This document shows, one piece after another, positions 200-62,773 of a stretch of DNA of 64,000 bases. The stretch covers positions 27,105 to 91,104 of the forward strand of contig JAUSKG010000021.1 of the NCBI GenBank assembly GCA_030647005.1. The letters run 5' to 3'. The notes under the pieces were generated by a model. The model ran no database searches and was not told where the DNA came from. It saw nothing but the letters and a program-made list of their open reading frames with translations. How positions within the stretch are numbered: the first letter of the stretch is position 1; every line of letters starts with the position of its first letter. A program made the translations under genes and the position numbers. Source of the DNA: a bacterium. GTDB lineage: Bacteria; Patescibacteriota; Patescibacteriia; JACPHY01.

Positions 200-355
200 A
201 GGGTAGCTTTGAGCGAAGGAGGAAGTCGAGAAATCTCACTTCCCCCCTTCGTCATTTCGAGCGAGTCCGCGAGTCGAGAAATCTCGTTGAGCAGGAGGAC
301 GTCGCTCGTGCTGTTGGACGAGATCTCTCCACTCGTTCGAGGACTCACTCGGTCG
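200..355. repeat. Family A dispersed repeat cluster (CGTCATTTCGAGCGAGTCCGCGAGTCGAGAAATCTC unit)
   Basis: 36-nt unit present here and, in either orientation, at 36262-36400, 47283-47467 and 47764-47995. Confidence 0.65.
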
Positions 356-468
356 CAATGACGGAGAGGGAGGAGAAGGGGGAAGAGGGGTGTGATGATC
401 CAAAAAGAAGAGACCCGCCAGAGGTCCCCAAGGACATGGCGGGTCAGTTGAAGTGTCGTGCGTGCAGT

Positions 469-36261: not shown

Positions 36262-36400
36262 CCATCTCCCTCTCGTCATTTCGAGCGAAGTGAGCGCACG
36301 GGCGAACGAAGTCGAGAAATCTCATATGGAGATCTCTCCGCTCTCTGTTGCGGAGCCTGCCCTGAGCGAGTCCGCGAGTCGAACGGGGTCGAGATGACGA
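36262..36400. repeat. Family A repeat copy between scpB and dacA
   Basis: tcgtcatttcgagcgaagtgagcgcacgggcgaacgaagtcgagaaatctc...gagcgagtccgcgagtcgaacggggtcgagatgacg. Confidence 0.65.
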
Positions 36401-38584: not shown

Positions 38585-38656
38585 GGCGGGGTAGCTCAGT
38601 GGTAGAGCAGCGGACTCATAAGCCGTTGGTCGCGGGTTCAACCCCCGCCCCCGCTA
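38585..38656 (+). tRNA. tRNA with CAT anticodon (elongator Met or lysidine-dependent Ile)
   Basis: ggcgggg acceptor, D-arm tagctcagtggtagagca, loop ctCATaa, T-arm gcgggttcaaccccc. Confidence 0.8.
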
Positions 38657-38703: not shown

Positions 38704-38791
38704 TGTCATTGCGAGCCGAGTCCTCGAGGCGCGGCAATCCCGGCCACTTGGTTCTGCGGGATTGCCACGTCGAGGACTCCTCGCAATGACA
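38704..38791. repeat. Family B palindromic MITE-like element (perfect ~40-bp arms tgtcattgcgag...ctcgcaatgaca)
   Basis: tgtcattgcgagccgagtcctcgaggcgcggcaatcccggcc | ggccgggattgccacgtcgaggactcctcgcaatgaca; directly after tRNA pair. Confidence 0.75.
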
Positions 38792-38824: not shown

Positions 38825-39313
38825 ATGCTCCTCACCATGCACGCGGCAACTGGTGCGCTCGCCGGTGAACTCTCCCCCAATGCGCTCACTGCGTTCGCGC
38901 TTGGATTCCTGTCGCACTTCCTCCTGGACATGTTCCCGCATGGCGATCGTGGGATTGCGCATGCGACGAAGGCAACGGGGAAAGCGCGACGATTCTACCT
39001 CCTCCTCGCGGTGGACATCGGCGCGAGCATCGCCATCTTCTTCCCTGCGTTCGCGCTGGGGAAGTTTGAGCACCCGCTCTACGCGTACATCGGCATGCTC
39101 GCGGGGCTCCTCCCCGACCTCATCGTGGCCATCCCTGAGTACGCGCTCTACGTGAAGAAGGAGTACCGCGTGCGCCTCCACTGGTTCTACAAGTTCCACG
39201 TCTACGTCCACGATCAGCTCATCAAGCATTTCAACGGCATGCCACTCAAGGTGGGCATCGCATTCCAAGTGGTGCTCCTCGTCCTCATCTGGAAGTACTG
39301 GCCATCGTCGTAG
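38825..39313 (+). CDS. hypothetical integral membrane protein, possibly membrane-bound metal-dependent hydrolase-like
   Basis: 4-5 TM segments, HFLLDMFPHGD motif; track ORF start 38762 lies inside the palindromic repeat, ATG 38825 preferred. Confidence 0.55.
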   Translation: MLLTMHAATGALAGELSPNALTAFALGFLSHFLLDMFPHGDRGIAHATKATGKARRFYLLLAVDIGASIAIFFPAFALGKFEHPLYAYIGMLAGLLPDLIVAIPEYALYVKKEYRVRLHWFYKFHVYVHDQLIKHFNGMPLKVGIAFQVVLLVLIWKYWPSS

Positions 39314-40371: not shown

Positions 40372-41256
40372 ATGACCATCCGTCAACGTGGGCTCGGCAG
40401 AGGACTCTCTGCGCTCATCCCCAGCGTTCCGCCAGCGGCCTTAGAACCGCAGCAGCGCAGCACCTCGGGCATGCTCGTGGTGCCGCCGGAGCAGATCCTC
40501 CCCAACCCCATGCAGCCGCGGCGGGATTTCCCACCCGCGGAGCTTGACGCACTCGCAGCGTCCATCCGCGCGCACGGCATCCTCCAGCCGCTCGTGGTCT
40601 CTCGACGCACCGATGGCCGGTATGAGCTCATCGCGGGGGAACGTCGCTTGCGCGCATCGCGGCGCGCGGGACTCGTCACCGTCCCCATCGTTATCCGTGA
40701 CGGTGTCGTAGATGACCGGACGAAGCTCGAGCTCGCCATTGTGGAGAACGTCCAGCGCGAGCACCTCAACGCGATTGATCGCGCGCTCGCGTACGAGCAG
40801 CTCGCGGAGGAGTTCGGGCTCACGCACGAGCAGATCGCCGAGCGCGTCGGCGTTGCACGTCCGAGCATCACGCACGTCCTCCGGCTCCTCGCGCTCCCCG
40901 AAGATATGCGGCAGGCGGTGCGCGACGGGCGGGTCTCCGAGGGGCACGCGAAGGTGCTCCTCGGCATCGCGGACCCCGCGGAGCAGCGCGCGTGGTTCCT
41001 CCGCATCCTCGAGGGTGGACTCTCGGTTGCACAGGCGGCACGGGAGACGCCGCGCAAGCGGCTAGCCCCGCGATCTCCTCGCGCGGCGACCGGTACGGCA
41101 TCCGATCCCAACCTCCGCGCGAAAGCGCTCGCGCTCCAGCAACGCCTTGGCGCGAAGGTGCGCATCGAGGCGAACGCGAGCGGCGGCGGGACGATTGCCA
41201 TCACGTACACCGACCGTGAGGAGCTCGACGGTATCGTCCAGACCATCACCGCATGA
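40372..41256 (+). CDS. parB: chromosome partitioning protein ParB/Spo0J
   Basis: RGLGRGLSAL, GERRLRASRRAGL, HTH region. Confidence 0.92.
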   Translation: MTIRQRGLGRGLSALIPSVPPAALEPQQRSTSGMLVVPPEQILPNPMQPRRDFPPAELDALAASIRAHGILQPLVVSRRTDGRYELIAGERRLRASRRAGLVTVPIVIRDGVVDDRTKLELAIVENVQREHLNAIDRALAYEQLAEEFGLTHEQIAERVGVARPSITHVLRLLALPEDMRQAVRDGRVSEGHAKVLLGIADPAEQRAWFLRILEGGLSVAQAARETPRKRLAPRSPRAATGTASDPNLRAKALALQQRLGAKVRIEANASGGGTIAITYTDREELDGIVQTITA

Positions 41257-41326
41257 GCACGCAGCGAATACGTCGCGCCGAACGGCGCGACGTATTCGCA
41301 TGTCAGTACTGCGGTGGAGTGGCATC

Positions 41327-47282: not shown

Positions 47283-47467
47283 GAGGGGGGGTGTTGAGGG
47301 GGATGAGATTTCTCGACTCGCGGACTCGCTCGAAATGACGAGGGAGGATAGGACTCGCTCGAAATGACGAAGGAAGGTGGAACCCGCTCGAAATGACGAA
47401 GGAAGTTTGTTCCACCTCATTTACCGTCATCTCGACCAAGCGAGTCCTCGAGCGCGTGGAGAGATCT
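47283..47467. repeat. Family A repeat block incl. 3 tandem ~29-bp units (cgctcgaaatgacgaaggaag) and 70-nt direct repeat shared with 47868-47940
   Basis: Read directly; repeat overlaps 3' end of GIY-YIG gene. Confidence 0.7.
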
Positions 47468-47469
47468 CG

Positions 47470-47763
47470 TCAGCACAGTTCGGGGTACAAGTCGCGCAAT
47501 GCGGGGTTCGTGGCTCTGATGAGTTCCAGCTTCTTAATCCTGCTCCAGCGTTTGAGCTGCTTCTCGCGCTCGATAGCATCCATGGCGGTCGCGTACTGCT
47601 CGTAGTAGATGAGGACAGTGCAGTGGTATCGCTCGGTAAACCCTCTGACAAATTTTTCCTGATGCTCCCAAACGCGGCGGATGAGGTTGTTGGTGATACC
47701 GATGTAGAGGACGGTGCGTTTGACGTTCGTGAGAATGTAGACGTAGTAGTGGCGCTCGTCCAT
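47470..47763 (-). CDS. GIY-YIG domain nuclease, small stand-alone type (97 aa)
   Basis: YYVYILTNVKRTVLYIGITNNLIRRVWEH ... ERE ... KKLELI (GIY-YIG/URI signature). Confidence 0.85.
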   Translation of the reverse strand: MDERHYYVYILTNVKRTVLYIGITNNLIRRVWEHQEKFVRGFTERYHCTVLIYYEQYATAMDAIEREKQLKRWSRIKKLELIRATNPALRDLYPELC

Positions 47764-47995
47764 AGCGTGAGATCTCTCGACTTCGCTCCGCTCCGCTCGA
47801 GATGACGGGGGGGCAGGAAGGGATCGCTCGAGATGACGAGAGTGGGATTGCTTTGTGTTTCATTCCTCGTCATCTCGACCAAGCGAGTCCTCGAGCGCGT
47901 GGAGAGATCTCGTCAGCACAGTTCGGGGCGCATTTCGCGTAGCGCGACAAGATTTCTCCGCTCGCGGACTCGGTCGAAATGACGGAGGAGGAGAG
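47764..47995. repeat. Family A repeat block upstream of GIY-YIG; contains second copy of 70-nt direct repeat incl. a remnant GIY-YIG 3' end (…PELC*)
   Basis: cgtcatctcgaccaagcgagtcctcgagcgcgtggagagatctcgtcagcacagttcgggg repeated at 47425 and 47868. Confidence 0.7.
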
Positions 47996-50406: not shown

Positions 50407-51498
50407 TCATGATCGAACGTAGCGGGAGCCGCCTACATCCCTCACCACACCATCGAGCTCCAGGGTTGTCAAGCAACTCGCGAGTTCGTGCGCGGGGGCG
50501 TTGACCACTGCGTGGAGGTCATCCACGTGGATGGGCTCGTGCGAGAGCGCGTCTACGATGCGGGCCGAGAGGCCGGTGAGGTGTGGCGCGGGTCTCGCTG
50601 CGGGGTGGAAGAGTTGGTCGAGGTGGAGGGCTTCCACGATGTCCTCCGCGCGCGTGATGGGCGTGGCACCGGACTTGAGCATGGCGAGCGGGCCCCGTGA
50701 CTCCTCCGCGGTGATCGGGCCGGGGACCGCGAAGACCTCGCGGCCAAAATCGAGCGCGAATCGCGCGGTGATGAGCGCGCCGGAATCACGCGGACACTCG
50801 ACGACGACCGTCCCCATCGAGAGGCCGGCGACGATGCGGTTGCGCGCGGGGAAGTGCATCTTGAGGCCCGCGGTGCCCGGGACGTACTCGGAGACGAGCA
50901 CTCCACCGGCGTCGAGGATGTCCCGCGCGAGCCCCCGGTGGTGGCGCGGGTAGATCGCGGCGTCATCAATGCCGGTACCGAGCACCGCGAGCGTGCGGCC
51001 ACCAACCTCGAGCGCCGCGCGGTGCGCAGCGCCATCAATCCCGAGCGCGAGGCCCGACGTGATCGTGAGGCCAGATCGCGCGAGCGGTCCAACGAGGAGA
51101 CGGGTTGCCGCGAGGCCGTAGTCCGTCGCGCGCCGCGTTCCGACGAATGCGATCTGCTGCGTGACGAGCGCGTCGGCTGCGCCGCGGACGAAGAGGACGA
51201 GCGGGGGATCGGGGATGGTCTTGAGGAGCGCGGGGTAGCGCGCGTCCGTGCGCGGGATGAGCACGATGCCGCCTGCGAGCATCGTTGCGGCGAGTGCGGG
51301 GACATCGATCGTCGGGCGTGCACCGAGGACGTTCGCAACGGTTTGCGGCATCATGCCGACCGCTTCAAGGTCTGCGCGGCGCGCTCCCCACGCTGCGGTG
51401 GGTGAGCCGCAGCGCTCGACGAGTCGCCAGAGGCGGACGCTCCCGATGATGTCGGTGAGCGCGGCGAGGCCGATCCAGGAAGTGAGCGTCGCGTCCAT
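50407..51498 (-). CDS. dprA: DNA processing protein DprA/Smf
   Basis: Rossmann-like DprA core ...GLALGIDGAAHRAALEVGGRTLAVLGTGID... Confidence 0.9.
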   Translation of the reverse strand: MDATLTSWIGLAALTDIIGSVRLWRLVERCGSPTAAWGARRADLEAVGMMPQTVANVLGARPTIDVPALAATMLAGGIVLIPRTDARYPALLKTIPDPPLVLFVRGAADALVTQQIAFVGTRRATDYGLAATRLLVGPLARSGLTITSGLALGIDGAAHRAALEVGGRTLAVLGTGIDDAAIYPRHHRGLARDILDAGGVLVSEYVPGTAGLKMHFPARNRIVAGLSMGTVVVECPRDSGALITARFALDFGREVFAVPGPITAEESRGPLAMLKSGATPITRAEDIVEALHLDQLFHPAARPAPHLTGLSARIVDALSHEPIHVDDLHAVVNAPAHELASCLTTLELDGVVRDVGGSRYVRS

Positions 51499-60496: not shown

Positions 60497-60527
60497 TGCG
60501 TCCCGCAAGCGGGGCGTTTTTTTGTTT
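60497..60527 (+). terminator. intrinsic terminator after yqeY-like gene
   Basis: gcgtcccgc-aag-cggggcg followed by ttttttt. Confidence 0.55.
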
Positions 60528-60554: not shown

Positions 60555-60677
60555 CTGTCATTGCGAGGAGTCCGCGACGCGGCAATCCCGGCCATACCTG
60601 CACGAGGTGAAGGCCTGGTGCACTGCATGACCGGGATTGCTTCGCCCCAACCAAAGCGTCGGGGCTCGCAATGACAG
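60555..60677. repeat. Family B palindromic MITE-like element (ctgtcattgcgag...ctcgcaatgacag) with ~35-nt central insert
   Basis: Arms gagtccgcgacgcggcaatcccggcc / ccgggattgc...ctcgcaatgacag. Confidence 0.75.
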
Positions 60678-60697
60678 GATAGTGTCGTATGGCTGTC

Positions 60698-60722
60698 GCC
60701 TCACGCAATCGAGGCGTTTTTT
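60698..60722 (+). terminator. intrinsic terminator
   Basis: cgcctc-acgcaatc-gaggcg then tttttt. Confidence 0.55.
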
Positions 60723-60757: not shown

Positions 60758-62773
60758 ATGGTGCATCTGCACGCGGACCGTTCCAAGCCACAAGCGCGAT
60801 GGAGTCGTTGGACGATGGTGAGCATCGCCCTCGTCGTTGTTGTCGGCGTGTGGGTGGCAATCGCACCGGTGCACGCAGTGGAGACCGGACTCGATGCGTT
60901 CGGGCAGGAGACGGTGCTCGGCGGGGAGGACATCCGCATCATCGTCGCGCGCATCATCCGCGGGTTCATCGGGTTGCTCGGTATCGTCGCGGTGGGCACG
61001 ATCCTCTTCGGCGGGTTCATGTGGATGACCTCGCAGGGAGATGAAACGAAGATCACGCAGGCGAAGCGCATCCTCATCAACGGTGCAATCGGTCTCGTCA
61101 TTATCCTCTCCGCGTTCGCGATCGCGCAGTTCGTGCTCTCGCGGCTCGTTGCGGCCGTCGGCGATTCCGGTGGTGGGTCCGGCATCGTTGGACCGTCGCC
61201 GCTTGAAGATGTCTCGCTCACCGGCGCGCTCGGCTCCGGTCCGGTTGCGGATCACTATCCTTCGCGCGATGCGACGGGCATCCCCCCGAACGTGCGCATC
61301 TTTGTGACATTCCGCGACACGCTCGAGGTGACGTCCTTCGTTGCGGATACGAACGGGAACGGCACGTTCGCAGCCGATGGTGACCGATCGCTCGACCTCG
61401 CGCTCGCGGAGGCGATCACCGTCACCCGCGTCGGAACAGATACCTCGACATCCGTTGGCGTGACGATCACCGAGGATCTCCGCACGTTCATTCTCACACC
61501 GGTGGAGCTCAATGACAACGGGACGGTGCGCGCGACCGCATCTGGCAATGCGGTGCGGCAGTGGCTCCAGGGCGACGCGCGCAACCCGCAGGCCTACATC
61601 GTGCGACTCACCAACGCGTTCCGATCGAGCGATGGTAAAGAACTCTTTACCGGTGCGTTCGCAGACGGGTACTCATGGTCCTTCACCGTTTCGGCGGATG
61701 CCGATCTCACGCCGCCAACGATTACGAGCGTCGTTCCGTTTCCGGATAGCGCGCAGGATGGCGCGCAGGTGACGGATCGTCCCGATGTCGCACGGAACGT
61801 CATCGTGCAGGTGAACTTCAGCGAGGCCATGGACCCCACAGTGACGAGCGGTACCTATCGGCAGAGCGAAACGACGCAGCGTTTTACGCATCTCGGCGTG
61901 GAGTATGTCACCGTGCAGAATACCACCGTGCGACTCGACGGAACCTTCACCATCGGCAATGGGTATCGTACCGCTGAGTTTACGACGTTTGTTTCTTGTG
62001 GTGTGAATTCGTGCGGCGGGACCGTGTACTGCCTGCCGGCCTCCGCTGCGTTGACCGCTTGGGCGGAAGCCGCTGTACTTGAAAACCCCGATGATCCTAC
62101 CGCCGTGCCATTCTCCGGCGTGATGGATGCGGCTGGGAATTCGCTCTCCGGTGATGGTGATGGTGTCGCAGAGGGTCCGGGCACACCGCGCTTCGATCGC
62201 CATCCCGACGCAACCAATACCAATGCATTCGACAGTGCGCAGTGGACGTTCTTCACGAACAATGCTATTGATCTCACGCCACCGGCGATCGTGAGCGTTG
62301 AGCACACCAGTCGTGATGACACAGCACTGACCTACGAGACGAACGACACGCTCGCGGATGTTCAGAATGTCTCGCCAACCGCGCCCATCGCCTTCCAGTT
62401 CTCCAAGCTCATGCGGAGCAATGCGACGACGGCATTCTTCTTGGAAGAAGCACTCTCCGGGTGCGATGCGGAAGGCAGCGGCGACGGGTGTTTCTGGCAA
62501 TATGGCCGTCTCGAGCACGTTCCGGCGGGAGCCCCGATCCAGAGTCGCGTGACCATCCACCACGCGCGACTGCTCGAGGTGCCGGAGGTTGAACCACCAC
62601 TACCACAACTACCACCGGCGGAGTACCTCGTGCGCGTGCGGTCGGATGCGCAGGACATCTACCAGAACTGCTTCTTCAATGTCGGTGCACCGCAGAAGGG
62701 ACCACAGGGCCCGAAAGGCGGAGAGGCGTGCTTCACGGTCGGCAATATCGAGACCTGCAACGTCATTCCCTAG
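60758..62773 (+). CDS. large secreted/surface protein with N-terminal TrbC/VirB2-like two-helix membrane domain
   Basis: Signal peptide then conserved ~90-aa module (DIRIIVARIIRGFIGLLGIVAVGTILFGGFMWMTSQGDETKITQAKRILINGAIGLVIILSAFAIAQFVL); true start probably at 60815. Confidence 0.8.
   Translation: MVHLHADRSKPQARWSRWTMVSIALVVVVGVWVAIAPVHAVETGLDAFGQETVLGGEDIRIIVARIIRGFIGLLGIVAVGTILFGGFMWMTSQGDETKITQAKRILINGAIGLVIILSAFAIAQFVLSRLVAAVGDSGGGSGIVGPSPLEDVSLTGALGSGPVADHYPSRDATGIPPNVRIFVTFRDTLEVTSFVADTNGNGTFAADGDRSLDLALAEAITVTRVGTDTSTSVGVTITEDLRTFILTPVELNDNGTVRATASGNAVRQWLQGDARNPQAYIVRLTNAFRSSDGKELFTGAFADGYSWSFTVSADADLTPPTITSVVPFPDSAQDGAQVTDRPDVARNVIVQVNFSEAMDPTVTSGTYRQSETTQRFTHLGVEYVTVQNTTVRLDGTFTIGNGYRTAEFTTFVSCGVNSCGGTVYCLPASAALTAWAEAAVLENPDDPTAVPFSGVMDAAGNSLSGDGDGVAEGPGTPRFDRHPDATNTNAFDSAQWTFFTNNAIDLTPPAIVSVEHTSRDDTALTYETNDTLADVQNVSPTAPIAFQFSKLMRSNATTAFFLEEALSGCDAEGSGDGCFWQYGRLEHVPAGAPIQSRVTIHHARLLEVPEVEPPLPQLPPAEYLVRVRSDAQDIYQNCFFNVGAPQKGPQGPKGGEACFTVGNIETCNVIP

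Follow-up and report, generated by a model that had tools for sequence, protein, structure and literature searches.

Introduction

Two described systems come close to the element reported here, an 88-nt palindrome at positions 38704-38791 of a 64,000-nt stretch of bacterial DNA (assembly GCA_030647005.1, contig JAUSKG010000021.1; 'the window' denotes the whole of this stretch). The first is the class of CGTC-tagged repetitive extragenic palindromic (REP) sequences defined by Di Nocera 2013 (PMC3733652), in which a terminal CGTC or TGTC tag is followed by a stem starting with AT and a short unpaired tail, and which occur mostly as tags-outward (HH) dimers, whose spacers measure 20-100 bp and which may fold as one long stem-loop. 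Families CGTC-1 to CGTC-4 have stems of 8-9 bp and loops of 4-5 nt. CGTC REPs have been reported in Proteobacteria, Chlorobi, Bacteroidetes, Spirochaetes and Thermotogae and are equivalent to dRS3 of Neisseria and to RPE-4 and RPE-6 of Rickettsia; no associated transposase or other enzyme was found, and they have never been found beside the genes of REP-associated tyrosine transposases (RAYT) (PMC3733652).

The second system supplies an enzyme. In Neisseria, the Neisseria Transformation Sequence (NTS, CGTCATTCCCGCGMAVGCGGGAATCYRG) contains dRS3, and NTS and its relatives, collectively Ssn-related motifs (SRM), flank ssnA (Chenal 2025 Nat Commun, PMC11893778), which encodes a 94-aa, single-domain GIY-YIG protein of CDD family cd10448, whose members measure about 94-100 aa. 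At least one SRM accompanies 71% of ssnA homologues, and 42% have the motif on both sides. The enzymology, known for the Neisseria and Wolbachia enzymes, is strand-specific: SsnA binds the motif only as single-stranded DNA (ssDNA), and only on the tagged strand, cutting a few nucleotides upstream, with no activity on double-stranded DNA or RNA. Binding depends above all on the C that follows the palindrome, while cutting depends critically on the three bases that precede it, and in N. meningitidis SsnA lowers transformation by NTS-bearing DNA. The NTS-ssnA-NTS arrangement was likened to an insertion sequence (IS) and to the RAYT/REP partnership as a hypothesis only, mobility not having been shown (all PMC11893778).

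Our principal conclusion is that the palindrome at 38704-38791 and its relatives in the window are HH dimers belonging, very probably, to this known class of CGTC/TGTC-tagged REPs and Ssn motifs, and that they are new members of it with longer module types.

Results and discussion

Structure of the palindromic elements

The focal element starts 48 nt past tRNA-Met (38585-38656) and stops 33 nt ahead of the ATG at 38825. Its sequence (TGTCATTGCGAG...CTCGCAATGACA) folds, as a single strand, into one long hairpin of -61 kcal/mol, compared with a mean of -29.8 +/- 3.4 for dinucleotide shuffles (z = -9.1, with 0 of 200 shuffles equal). The first-pass annotation of this DNA described a near-perfect palindrome of about 40/40 positions; the palindrome is indeed long but it is imperfect, since the left arm has a 2-nt bulge (CC) and an internal mismatch region, leaving some 34-37 pairs in total. 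The element resolves into two oriented modules of a kind that we call B type, and the window contains two further elements built from such modules:

38704-38791, unstranded: focal element, 88 nt, imperfect palindrome and tags-outward (HH) dimer of two B-type modules
38705-38739 (plus) and 38760-38790 (minus): arms of the focal dimer, spacer about 13-20 nt, by module detection and arm alignment
60555-60677, unstranded: second B-type HH dimer, by fold, module detection and arm alignment
60557-60587 (plus) and 60635-60675 (minus): arms of the second dimer, the minus arm with a strong inner hairpin CCCCGAC...GGGG
118-178, unstranded: degenerate B-type element after tRNA-Pro, fold z = -3.4

The second dimer ends in the same 13 nt as the focal copy (CTGTCATTGCGAG / CTCGCAATGACAG) and its fold reaches z = -7.4 on the plus strand and -9.8 on the minus strand; its 47-nt spacer is itself a hairpin, and terminator-like hairpins with T-runs stand on either side of it, at 60498-60517 and 60697-60716. 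The common termini and the position between two terminators had been recognised at first pass, but the element is not simply a copy with a 35-nt central insert, as was then supposed. While its left arm matches the right arm of the focal copy at 32 of 34 positions, its right arm also differs, being another variant with the interior CCCCGACGCTTTGGTTGGGG. Likewise, the degenerate copy does follow tRNA-Pro (8-83), although its span is about 118-178 and not 118-190; it keeps an unaltered head GTCATTGCGAG, whereas through decay the closing GCAATC now reads GGGATTCC and the right head GACGTTGCGAG.

The palindrome family is non-random, chance being excluded by statistics: the 11-mer GTCATTGCGAG, allowing one mismatch, has 12 occurrences in the window, a number that none of the shuffles attained and that compares with an expectation of 2.4. 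Rfam at gathering thresholds matched only four tRNAs in the window. Permissive Rfam searches with the two B-type dimers returned miRNA-family matches, which are chance hairpins, and a match of the second dimer's spacer (60581-60635) to the HDV-like ribozyme drz-agam-1 is also judged to be due to chance, at 22 bits for a gathering score of 37 and with the 5' part and P4 missing.

The focal element has a consequence for the annotation of the gene beside it. ORF 38762 takes its start from a TTG inside the right arm, its translation beginning '...LLAMT...', while the deposited protein P0166 (162 aa) starts at ATG 38825 and its homologues (159-163 aa, and one of 181) also begin at the equivalent ATG. 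Given that P0166 and nearly all of its homologues agree on this start, the longer N-terminus of ORF 38762 is spurious, as the first-pass annotation had maintained. Modules yield false N-terminal extensions and small spurious open reading frames (ORFs) with recurring peptides such as 'LLAMT', and they also break assemblies.

In all, the window contains 12 complete modules in five clusters, every cluster being intergenic. Each of the 12 begins with YGTCAT and all follow a single plan, which from the head inward reads Y-GTC-AT-NN-CGA(G/C), then a variable interior, often with GAGTCC, then N-NN-AT-C and a tail rich in pyrimidines. A 5-bp closing stem forms between the bases that immediately follow GTC and those that immediately precede the tail C, this C adjoining the stem in 12 of 12 cases; the interior is 12-26 nt long and partly structured, and the tail is CCC or CTC. 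Closing stems covary among three versions, ATTTC/GAAAT, ATCTC/GAGAT and ATTGC/GCAAT, the last defining B type. From the combination of a fixed tag and tail with a covarying stem, it follows that each arm is a small oriented hairpin module. The 12-bp 'termini' noted at first pass, which resemble terminal inverted repeats (TIRs), are the heads of two such modules, of the CGTC-tagged REP or SRM kind. Nor is 'Family B', as it was called, a family apart, being a sister type of modules with the heads GTCATTTCGAG or GTCATCTCGAG elsewhere in the window. These A-type elements were found through one-mismatch matches to GTCATTGCGAG. Tags-outward pairs number five in the window (251-362, 36275-36398, 38704-38791, 47869-47983 and 60555-60677), and the two arms of one dimer may differ, several A-type dimers combining an ATTTC with an ATCTC module. 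The following are A-type features:

251-362, unstranded: A-type HH dimer, z = -5.6, arms 251-283 (plus, ATTTC...GAAAT) and about 320-362 (minus, a hybrid, GTCATTGCGACC...GAGAGATC)
36275-36398, unstranded: A-type HH dimer in the ScpB-DacA spacer, arms 36275-36321 (plus, ATTTC...GAAAT) and 36331-36398 (minus, ATCTC...GAGAT)
47307-47339, minus: complete A-type module, within 47307-47397
47358-47368 and 47387-47397, minus: two truncated heads 5' of the module at 47307-47339, with a 29-nt period

A GIY-YIG gene between two modules

One gene in the window is enclosed by modules in the manner of ssnA, and the module-ssn-module unit occupies about 380 bp in all. Its parts, and a dimer adjacent to it, are as follows:

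47470-47763, minus: ssn-like gene, 97 aa, predicted single-domain GIY-YIG nuclease (PF01541)
47426-47466, plus: downstream module, ATCTC...GAGAT type, 3 nt from the ssn stop codon and inverted relative to the gene
47771-47806, minus: upstream module, 7 nt before the ssn ATG and in the same orientation as the gene
47827-47837, minus: truncated head 5' of the upstream module, the two together spanning 47771-47837
47869-47983, unstranded: HH dimer resembling the ssn unit without the gene, arms 47869-47909 (plus) and 47951-47983 (minus)

The 97-aa protein matches Pfam PF01541 (E = 1.2e-13, residues 6-76) and no other domain. Three of its residues, Y9, Y20 and E67, are invariant in an alignment of 38 homologues, and their spacing is that of the catalytic residues Y6, Y17 and E64 of N. 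meningitidis SsnA (PMC11893778). Its relatives number 2555 at E < 1e-5, many of them on contigs of about 1 kb, and the annotated N-terminal extensions of several are translated modules ('...LRHLDRSGEI...' and '...VISSEPEGRVEKS...', for example). DprA is also encoded in the window (50407-51498).

The adjacent dimer preserves a portion of the gene. Comparison of 47858-47928 with 47415-47485 reveals 60 identical nucleotides, such that the left 60 nt of the dimer at 47869-47983 equal 47426-47485; this identity comprises the module and a further 18 nt containing the last codons and stop of ssn (...PELC*), beyond which the sequences diverge. Because the 3' end of ssn is included, the dimer looks like an ssn unit after gene loss.

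Association of gene and module across phyla

The pairing of an ssn-like gene with flanking modules is not peculiar to this genome. A scan of one genome per species located at least 593 loci encoding relatives of the 97-aa protein, of which 80 were kept, spanning Cloacimonadota, Alpha- and Gammaproteobacteria, Bacteroidales, Chlorobi, Clostridia, Elusimicrobia, Ignavibacteria, Parcubacteria and Saccharibacteria, among others. To count as a module, a site needed a GTCWY tag and, beginning at W, a stem of 5 or more perfect base pairs whose closing arm was followed by C. By this rule a module in forward orientation lies no more than 150 nt upstream of the ssn homologue at 52 of the 80 loci, an inverted module lies no more than 150 nt downstream at 51, and both sides are occupied at 36, compared with 1 of 69 control stretches taken 1.05-1.2 kb upstream. 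Stems vary widely between genomes (ATTGCCGGG/CCCGGCAAT, ATCCTGAA/TTCAGGAT and ATTCCCGCG/CGCGGGAAT are examples), with GTC-AT and AT-C constant. B-type modules (ATTGC...GCAAT) flank the ssn homologues of loci L006, L014, L023, L032, L055, L062, L067 and L121, and the module of L023 (GTCATTGCGAGCCCCGACTTGTCGGGGCGTGGCAATC) bears a striking resemblance to the right arm of the dimer at 60555-60677. Beside the homologues of L017 and L043 lies a 24-nt motif core consistent with the Neisseria NTS consensus GTCATTCCCGCGAAAGCGGGAATC, and the one beside that of L065 has GAAC; these three proteins have 48-55% identity to the 97-aa protein, and their flanks lend indirect support to its kinship with SsnA.

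Dimers, too, are widely dispersed. The pattern GTCATTGCGAG-N(50-80)-CTCGCAATGAC occurs on at least 120 metagenome contigs, at loci with GC contents of 0.35-0.70, and 90 of 100 extracted dimers have the GCAATC closure in both arms although it was absent from the search pattern, which indicates that the metagenome dimers are homologous and not chance matches. The base preceding GTC in 194 arms of these dimers is C in 62% and T in 30%. An ssn homologue is present at only 2 of 80 dimer loci (432 kb in total), the expected picture where many dispersed sites are combined with few enzyme genes; at one of the two, L121, the gene is flanked on both sides by B-type dimers.

Tandem arrays of B-type dimers were seen at two loci. 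L114 (3969-5019) has at least 8 matched copies at 121-nt spacing with one gap, and L151 (1897-2223) has three copies with a 124-nt period; every copy carries the same flank, which suggests that the dimer and its flank were amplified as one unit.

Relationship to described repeats

The resemblance to SRM and NTS extends from the motif to the gene. Both have an HGTCWY tag, a hairpin immediately after the tag, a C after the hairpin and numerous intergenic copies, and both place a gene for a single-domain GIY-YIG protein of about 95 aa, with the same spacing of catalytic Tyr, Tyr and Glu, between inverted motifs. The window modules differ in having a 5-bp closing stem around an interior of 12-26 nt, and in the dominance of the paired palindromic form; their host also differs, being one of the Patescibacteria (Uhrbacteria-like), which Chenal 2025 does not mention, and its homologue is known from sequence alone. 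With CGTC REPs the window modules share the CGTC or TGTC tag, the AT-initiated stem, the short tail, the tags-outward dimers and the lack of a transposase, while they depart from CGTC-1 to CGTC-4 in being longer and bulged (TGCGAG, TTCGAG and CTCGAG types) and in coming from another phylum. They would form additional CGTC-REP families, and would place the Ssn/SRM system in a phylum that Di Nocera 2013 does not name either.

More distant comparisons are instructive for their differences. The REPIN-RAYT system (Bertels and Rainey 2011; Nunvar 2010; Ton-Hoang 2012) similarly has inverted hairpin pairs that form a long hairpin, repeats that flank a single-copy nuclease gene, no target duplications and presumed recognition of ssDNA; in contrast, the enzyme here is of GIY-YIG and not HUH/Y1 type, the tag is YGTC and not GTAG, and what has been shown for Ssn is cleavage, not strand transfer. 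The Correia/NEMIS, RUP and Nezha elements, which are miniature inverted-repeat transposable elements (MITEs), are also small, palindromic, intergenic, multi-copy and non-coding, whereas the window elements lack true TIRs matching an IS and lack fixed target duplications (TA in Correia). Searching the literature by motif sequence produced unrelated primer sequences only, and a search for GIY-YIG together with miniature inverted-repeat elements produced nothing relevant.

Several observations weigh against membership of this class, or against so direct a link between the focal elements and an Ssn enzyme. Sequence searches of NCBIfam and the PDB with the 97-aa nuclease, which might have supported direct homology to N. 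meningitidis SsnA, gave no match. The published SRM string, HGTCWYN(0-2)YYVSBRHN(0-5)WNVSBRGN(0-2)RNCYNB, has 0 matches in the window where 0.7 would be expected, and the window modules do not show the 8-9 bp stem and 4-5 nt loop of CGTC-1 to CGTC-4. Single arms, taken as isolated DNA hairpins, are not unusually stable (z from -1.6 to +1.2), and so it is covariation and the pattern across the family, not folding energy, that support reading a single module as a hairpin. Finally, the window's single ssn gene has modules of ATCTC type, not B type, on its flanks, and N. meningitidis SsnA is inactive once the stem sequence is changed, even where the hairpin is kept (PMC11893778); consequently, a cognate enzyme for the focal B-type elements is not demonstrated.

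The failure of the SRM string carries less weight than it might, given that the same string finds only 11 of the 80 homologue loci upstream and 3 of the 80 downstream. Being insensitive where the gene itself is present, it is a search aid more than a definition and its zero count is not exclusionary. Moreover, since the longer module types are missed by the published pattern, surveys based on it will undercount the family.

Mobility and turnover

The first-pass annotation called these elements MITE-like, and this is apt in so far as they constitute a dispersed, non-coding and non-autonomous family that is intergenic and found after tRNAs and terminators, but they are REPIN-like repeats and not MITEs of the classical TIR type. 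No target-site duplication was found at the window copies, nor one of fixed length among 97 metagenome dimers, whose flanks match over a mean of 1.61 nt (1.34 +/- 0.13 when flank pairs are shuffled) without favouring any length. No transposase domain was detected in the 40 window ORFs scanned. The suggestion that the element is active or recently active goes further than the data, in that the B copies differ from each other and the window has no B-type nuclease gene.

Evidence for turnover comes from related genomes. Relatives of the 162-aa protein P0166 have 64-81% identity to it, several are labelled Candidatus Uhrbacteria, and gene order is conserved. Three sites occupied by elements in the window can be compared with their orthologues:

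tRNA-Met to ORF spacer: here 168 nt with the 88-nt element; 18 nt in L204, about 32 nt in L202 and 115 nt in L203, with no module in any
ScpB-DacA junction: here a 196-nt gap with the dimer 36275-36398; in L204 the genes overlap and there is no spacer
Spacer after YqeY: here 281 nt, with the element and a second terminator-like hairpin; in L081 57 nt, with one terminator hairpin

In L081, YqeY is 56% and the downstream protein 47% identical to its counterpart in the window. The elements are absent from all three orthologous sites, and on the parsimonious reading of these comparisons they were probably gained in the present lineage. This is tempered by the distance of the relatives (47-81% amino acid identity), which leaves some possibility of loss in their lineages, and by spacers too diverged to align, in which exact insertion boundaries are unreadable.

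Two peculiarities of the related spacers should be recorded. At a contig end in L202 (1-240), the closest relative, the 3' half of tRNA-Met and about 50 nt upstream of it are duplicated some 160 nt apart, upstream of the orthologous ORF, which may be a rearrangement or an assembly artefact. The orthologous spacer in L204 (2140-2330) contains repeats such as GGGTATCGAGCGCAGCGAAGATAC, with an interior like that of SRM (GAGCGCAGCGAAG) and no GTCAT head, and these may be a divergent or decayed module type.

Complete modules are sometimes preceded by truncated heads, which recur in tandem together with the 5' flank, and only on the 5' side (9 of 171 modules, against 0 of 171 on the 3' side). By analogy with the characterised enzymes this is the presumed side of cleavage by Ssn, and the truncated heads would fit abortive events at the cut site. 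Repeats of a CT-rich 5' flank and truncated head, with a period of about 29 nt, occur in the window at 47307-47397 and 47806-47837, and the same pattern was seen in unrelated phyla, in the upstream flanks of L008, L045, L057 and L080.

The dimer at 47869-47983 that retains the 3' end of ssn, the three empty orthologous sites, the many homologues on contigs of about 1 kb, a situation usual for multi-copy repeats, and the truncated heads confined to the 5' side together lead us to a tentative proposal, which we regard as possible and no stronger than that: the module-ssn-module unit of about 380 bp might itself be mobile and autonomous, with a GIY-YIG ssDNA nuclease moving it and a size below that of any known IS-like element. 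The dimers, the focal one among them, would then be its gene-deleted, MITE-like derivatives, still mobilisable in trans. Mobility of the dimers is in itself plausible. If the gene-deleted derivative and the empty sites do reflect mobility, this would be a good system for asking whether a GIY-YIG ssDNA nuclease drives transposition.

Proposed mechanism

We propose a model in which the modules would be the cognate DNA sites of small single-domain GIY-YIG nucleases, that is, of Ssn. When the DNA becomes single-stranded, as it might during replication, repair or DNA uptake, Ssn would recognise the folded module on the tagged strand and, judging from the Neisseria and Wolbachia enzymes, nick it just 5' of YGTC. 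A tags-outward dimer would therefore offer one recognisable motif on each strand, with the cut sites at the two outer edges of the element. The host might benefit through restriction of recombination by incoming single strands; alternatively or additionally, Ssn activity might spread the dimers, as RAYT is thought to spread REPINs. By the same analogy, we infer that the Ssn of this organism would cut motifs of the window. The B-type motifs, however, probably need a B-type Ssn of their own, situated outside the window or lost, given that the ssn gene of the window is flanked by ATCTC-type modules and that N. meningitidis SsnA is sensitive to stem sequence. The system would also suit the question whether Ssn sites influence the uptake and recombination of DNA in organisms believed to rely on scavenging it.

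Alternative explanations

Should no B-type enzyme exist elsewhere in the genome, the focal elements would be relics, and among the competing explanations this one survives best, unlikely as we judge it to be. It holds that the B-type dimers are fossil Ssn motifs whose cognate B-type nuclease has been lost and which are neither cut nor copied. In its favour, the window is without a B-type ssn, the B copies differ from each other and the copy at 118-178 is degenerate, single B-type arms fold weakly, and N. meningitidis SsnA is specific for the sequence of its own stem. Yet this evidence covers only 64 kb of the genome, and the state of the elements argues the other way: the arms of the focal copy still pair over about 35 bp, two arms from different copies are identical at 32 of 34 positions, and the elements are absent from relatives with 72-81% identity in the neighbouring gene, so that they are not very old.

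A second explanation, which we consider highly improbable, is that the palindromes are hairpins that evolved locally, as plain intrinsic terminators or RNA-stabilising stem-loops, neither mobile nor linked to a nuclease. Copies do follow tRNA-Pro, tRNA-Met and YqeY, their folds are very stable, and REP-type repeats are known to influence both termination and the decay of mRNA (background cited in PMC3733652). On the other hand, the focal copy has no T-run on the transcribed strand and was not called as a terminator, the copy at 60555 lies between two separate terminator-like hairpins, and the orthologous spacers in relatives do without any such element. The same 11-nt heads and internal closure recur on at least 120 unrelated metagenome contigs and around GIY-YIG genes, and as a sole explanation the plain-hairpin reading is contradicted by this dispersal.

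Scarcely any credence can be given to a classical MITE, namely a deletion derivative of an IS of DDE type, moved by cut-and-paste by a transposase elsewhere in the genome that recognises the 12-nt TIRs. The small size, the termini that are inverted repeats beginning TG...CA, the intergenic copies and the orthologous sites lacking the element would all suit such an origin, but there is neither a target-site duplication at the window copies nor one of preferred length in the 97 metagenome dimers, the 40 ORFs scanned contain no transposase domain, and what would be the TIR is an oriented module, found on its own as well and, in many phyla, on both sides of GIY-YIG genes. The least credible alternative, classical REPINs, in which REP pairs are mobilised by an IS200/IS605-like RAYT, can be set aside despite sharing inverted hairpin repeats, outward conserved tags, intergenic positions and an absence of duplications with the architecture outlined in PMC3116915 and PMC3337134, for the tag is YGTC and not GTAG, CGTC-tagged REPs are never found beside RAYT genes (PMC3733652), and the bracketed gene, here and in the 80 homologous loci, encodes a GIY-YIG protein and not a Y1 transposase.

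Other features of the window

Between 28000 and 30900 the GC content falls to 0.35-0.45, compared with 0.61 in the window as a whole, and of the 15 copies of GTGTCARGTCY in the window (at most one mismatch; 3.4 expected) this island contains 14, in both orientations and including the inverted pairs 28609-28632/28781-28804 and 30730-30752/30797-30819. The ORFs scanned in the island have no Pfam match; its appearance is iteron-like or foreign, and it has no relation to the SRM family. A perfect 17-bp palindrome with a 2-nt spacer (GCGAATACGTCGCGCCG/CGGCGCGACGTATTCGC, 41264-41299) closely follows the ParB gene (40372-41256) and extends into the 3' end of a RelA/SpoT-like gene that converges on it; the palindrome may act as a terminator in both directions or as a site of protein binding. 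Lastly, the gene at 60758-62773 encodes a 671-aa protein with an N-terminal segment like that of type IV secretion system (T4SS) pilins (PF18895), of a kind typical of Patescibacteria surface proteins; it is 47% identical in the related genome L081, where the upstream gene order (HisRS-HIT-S21-YqeY) is the same.

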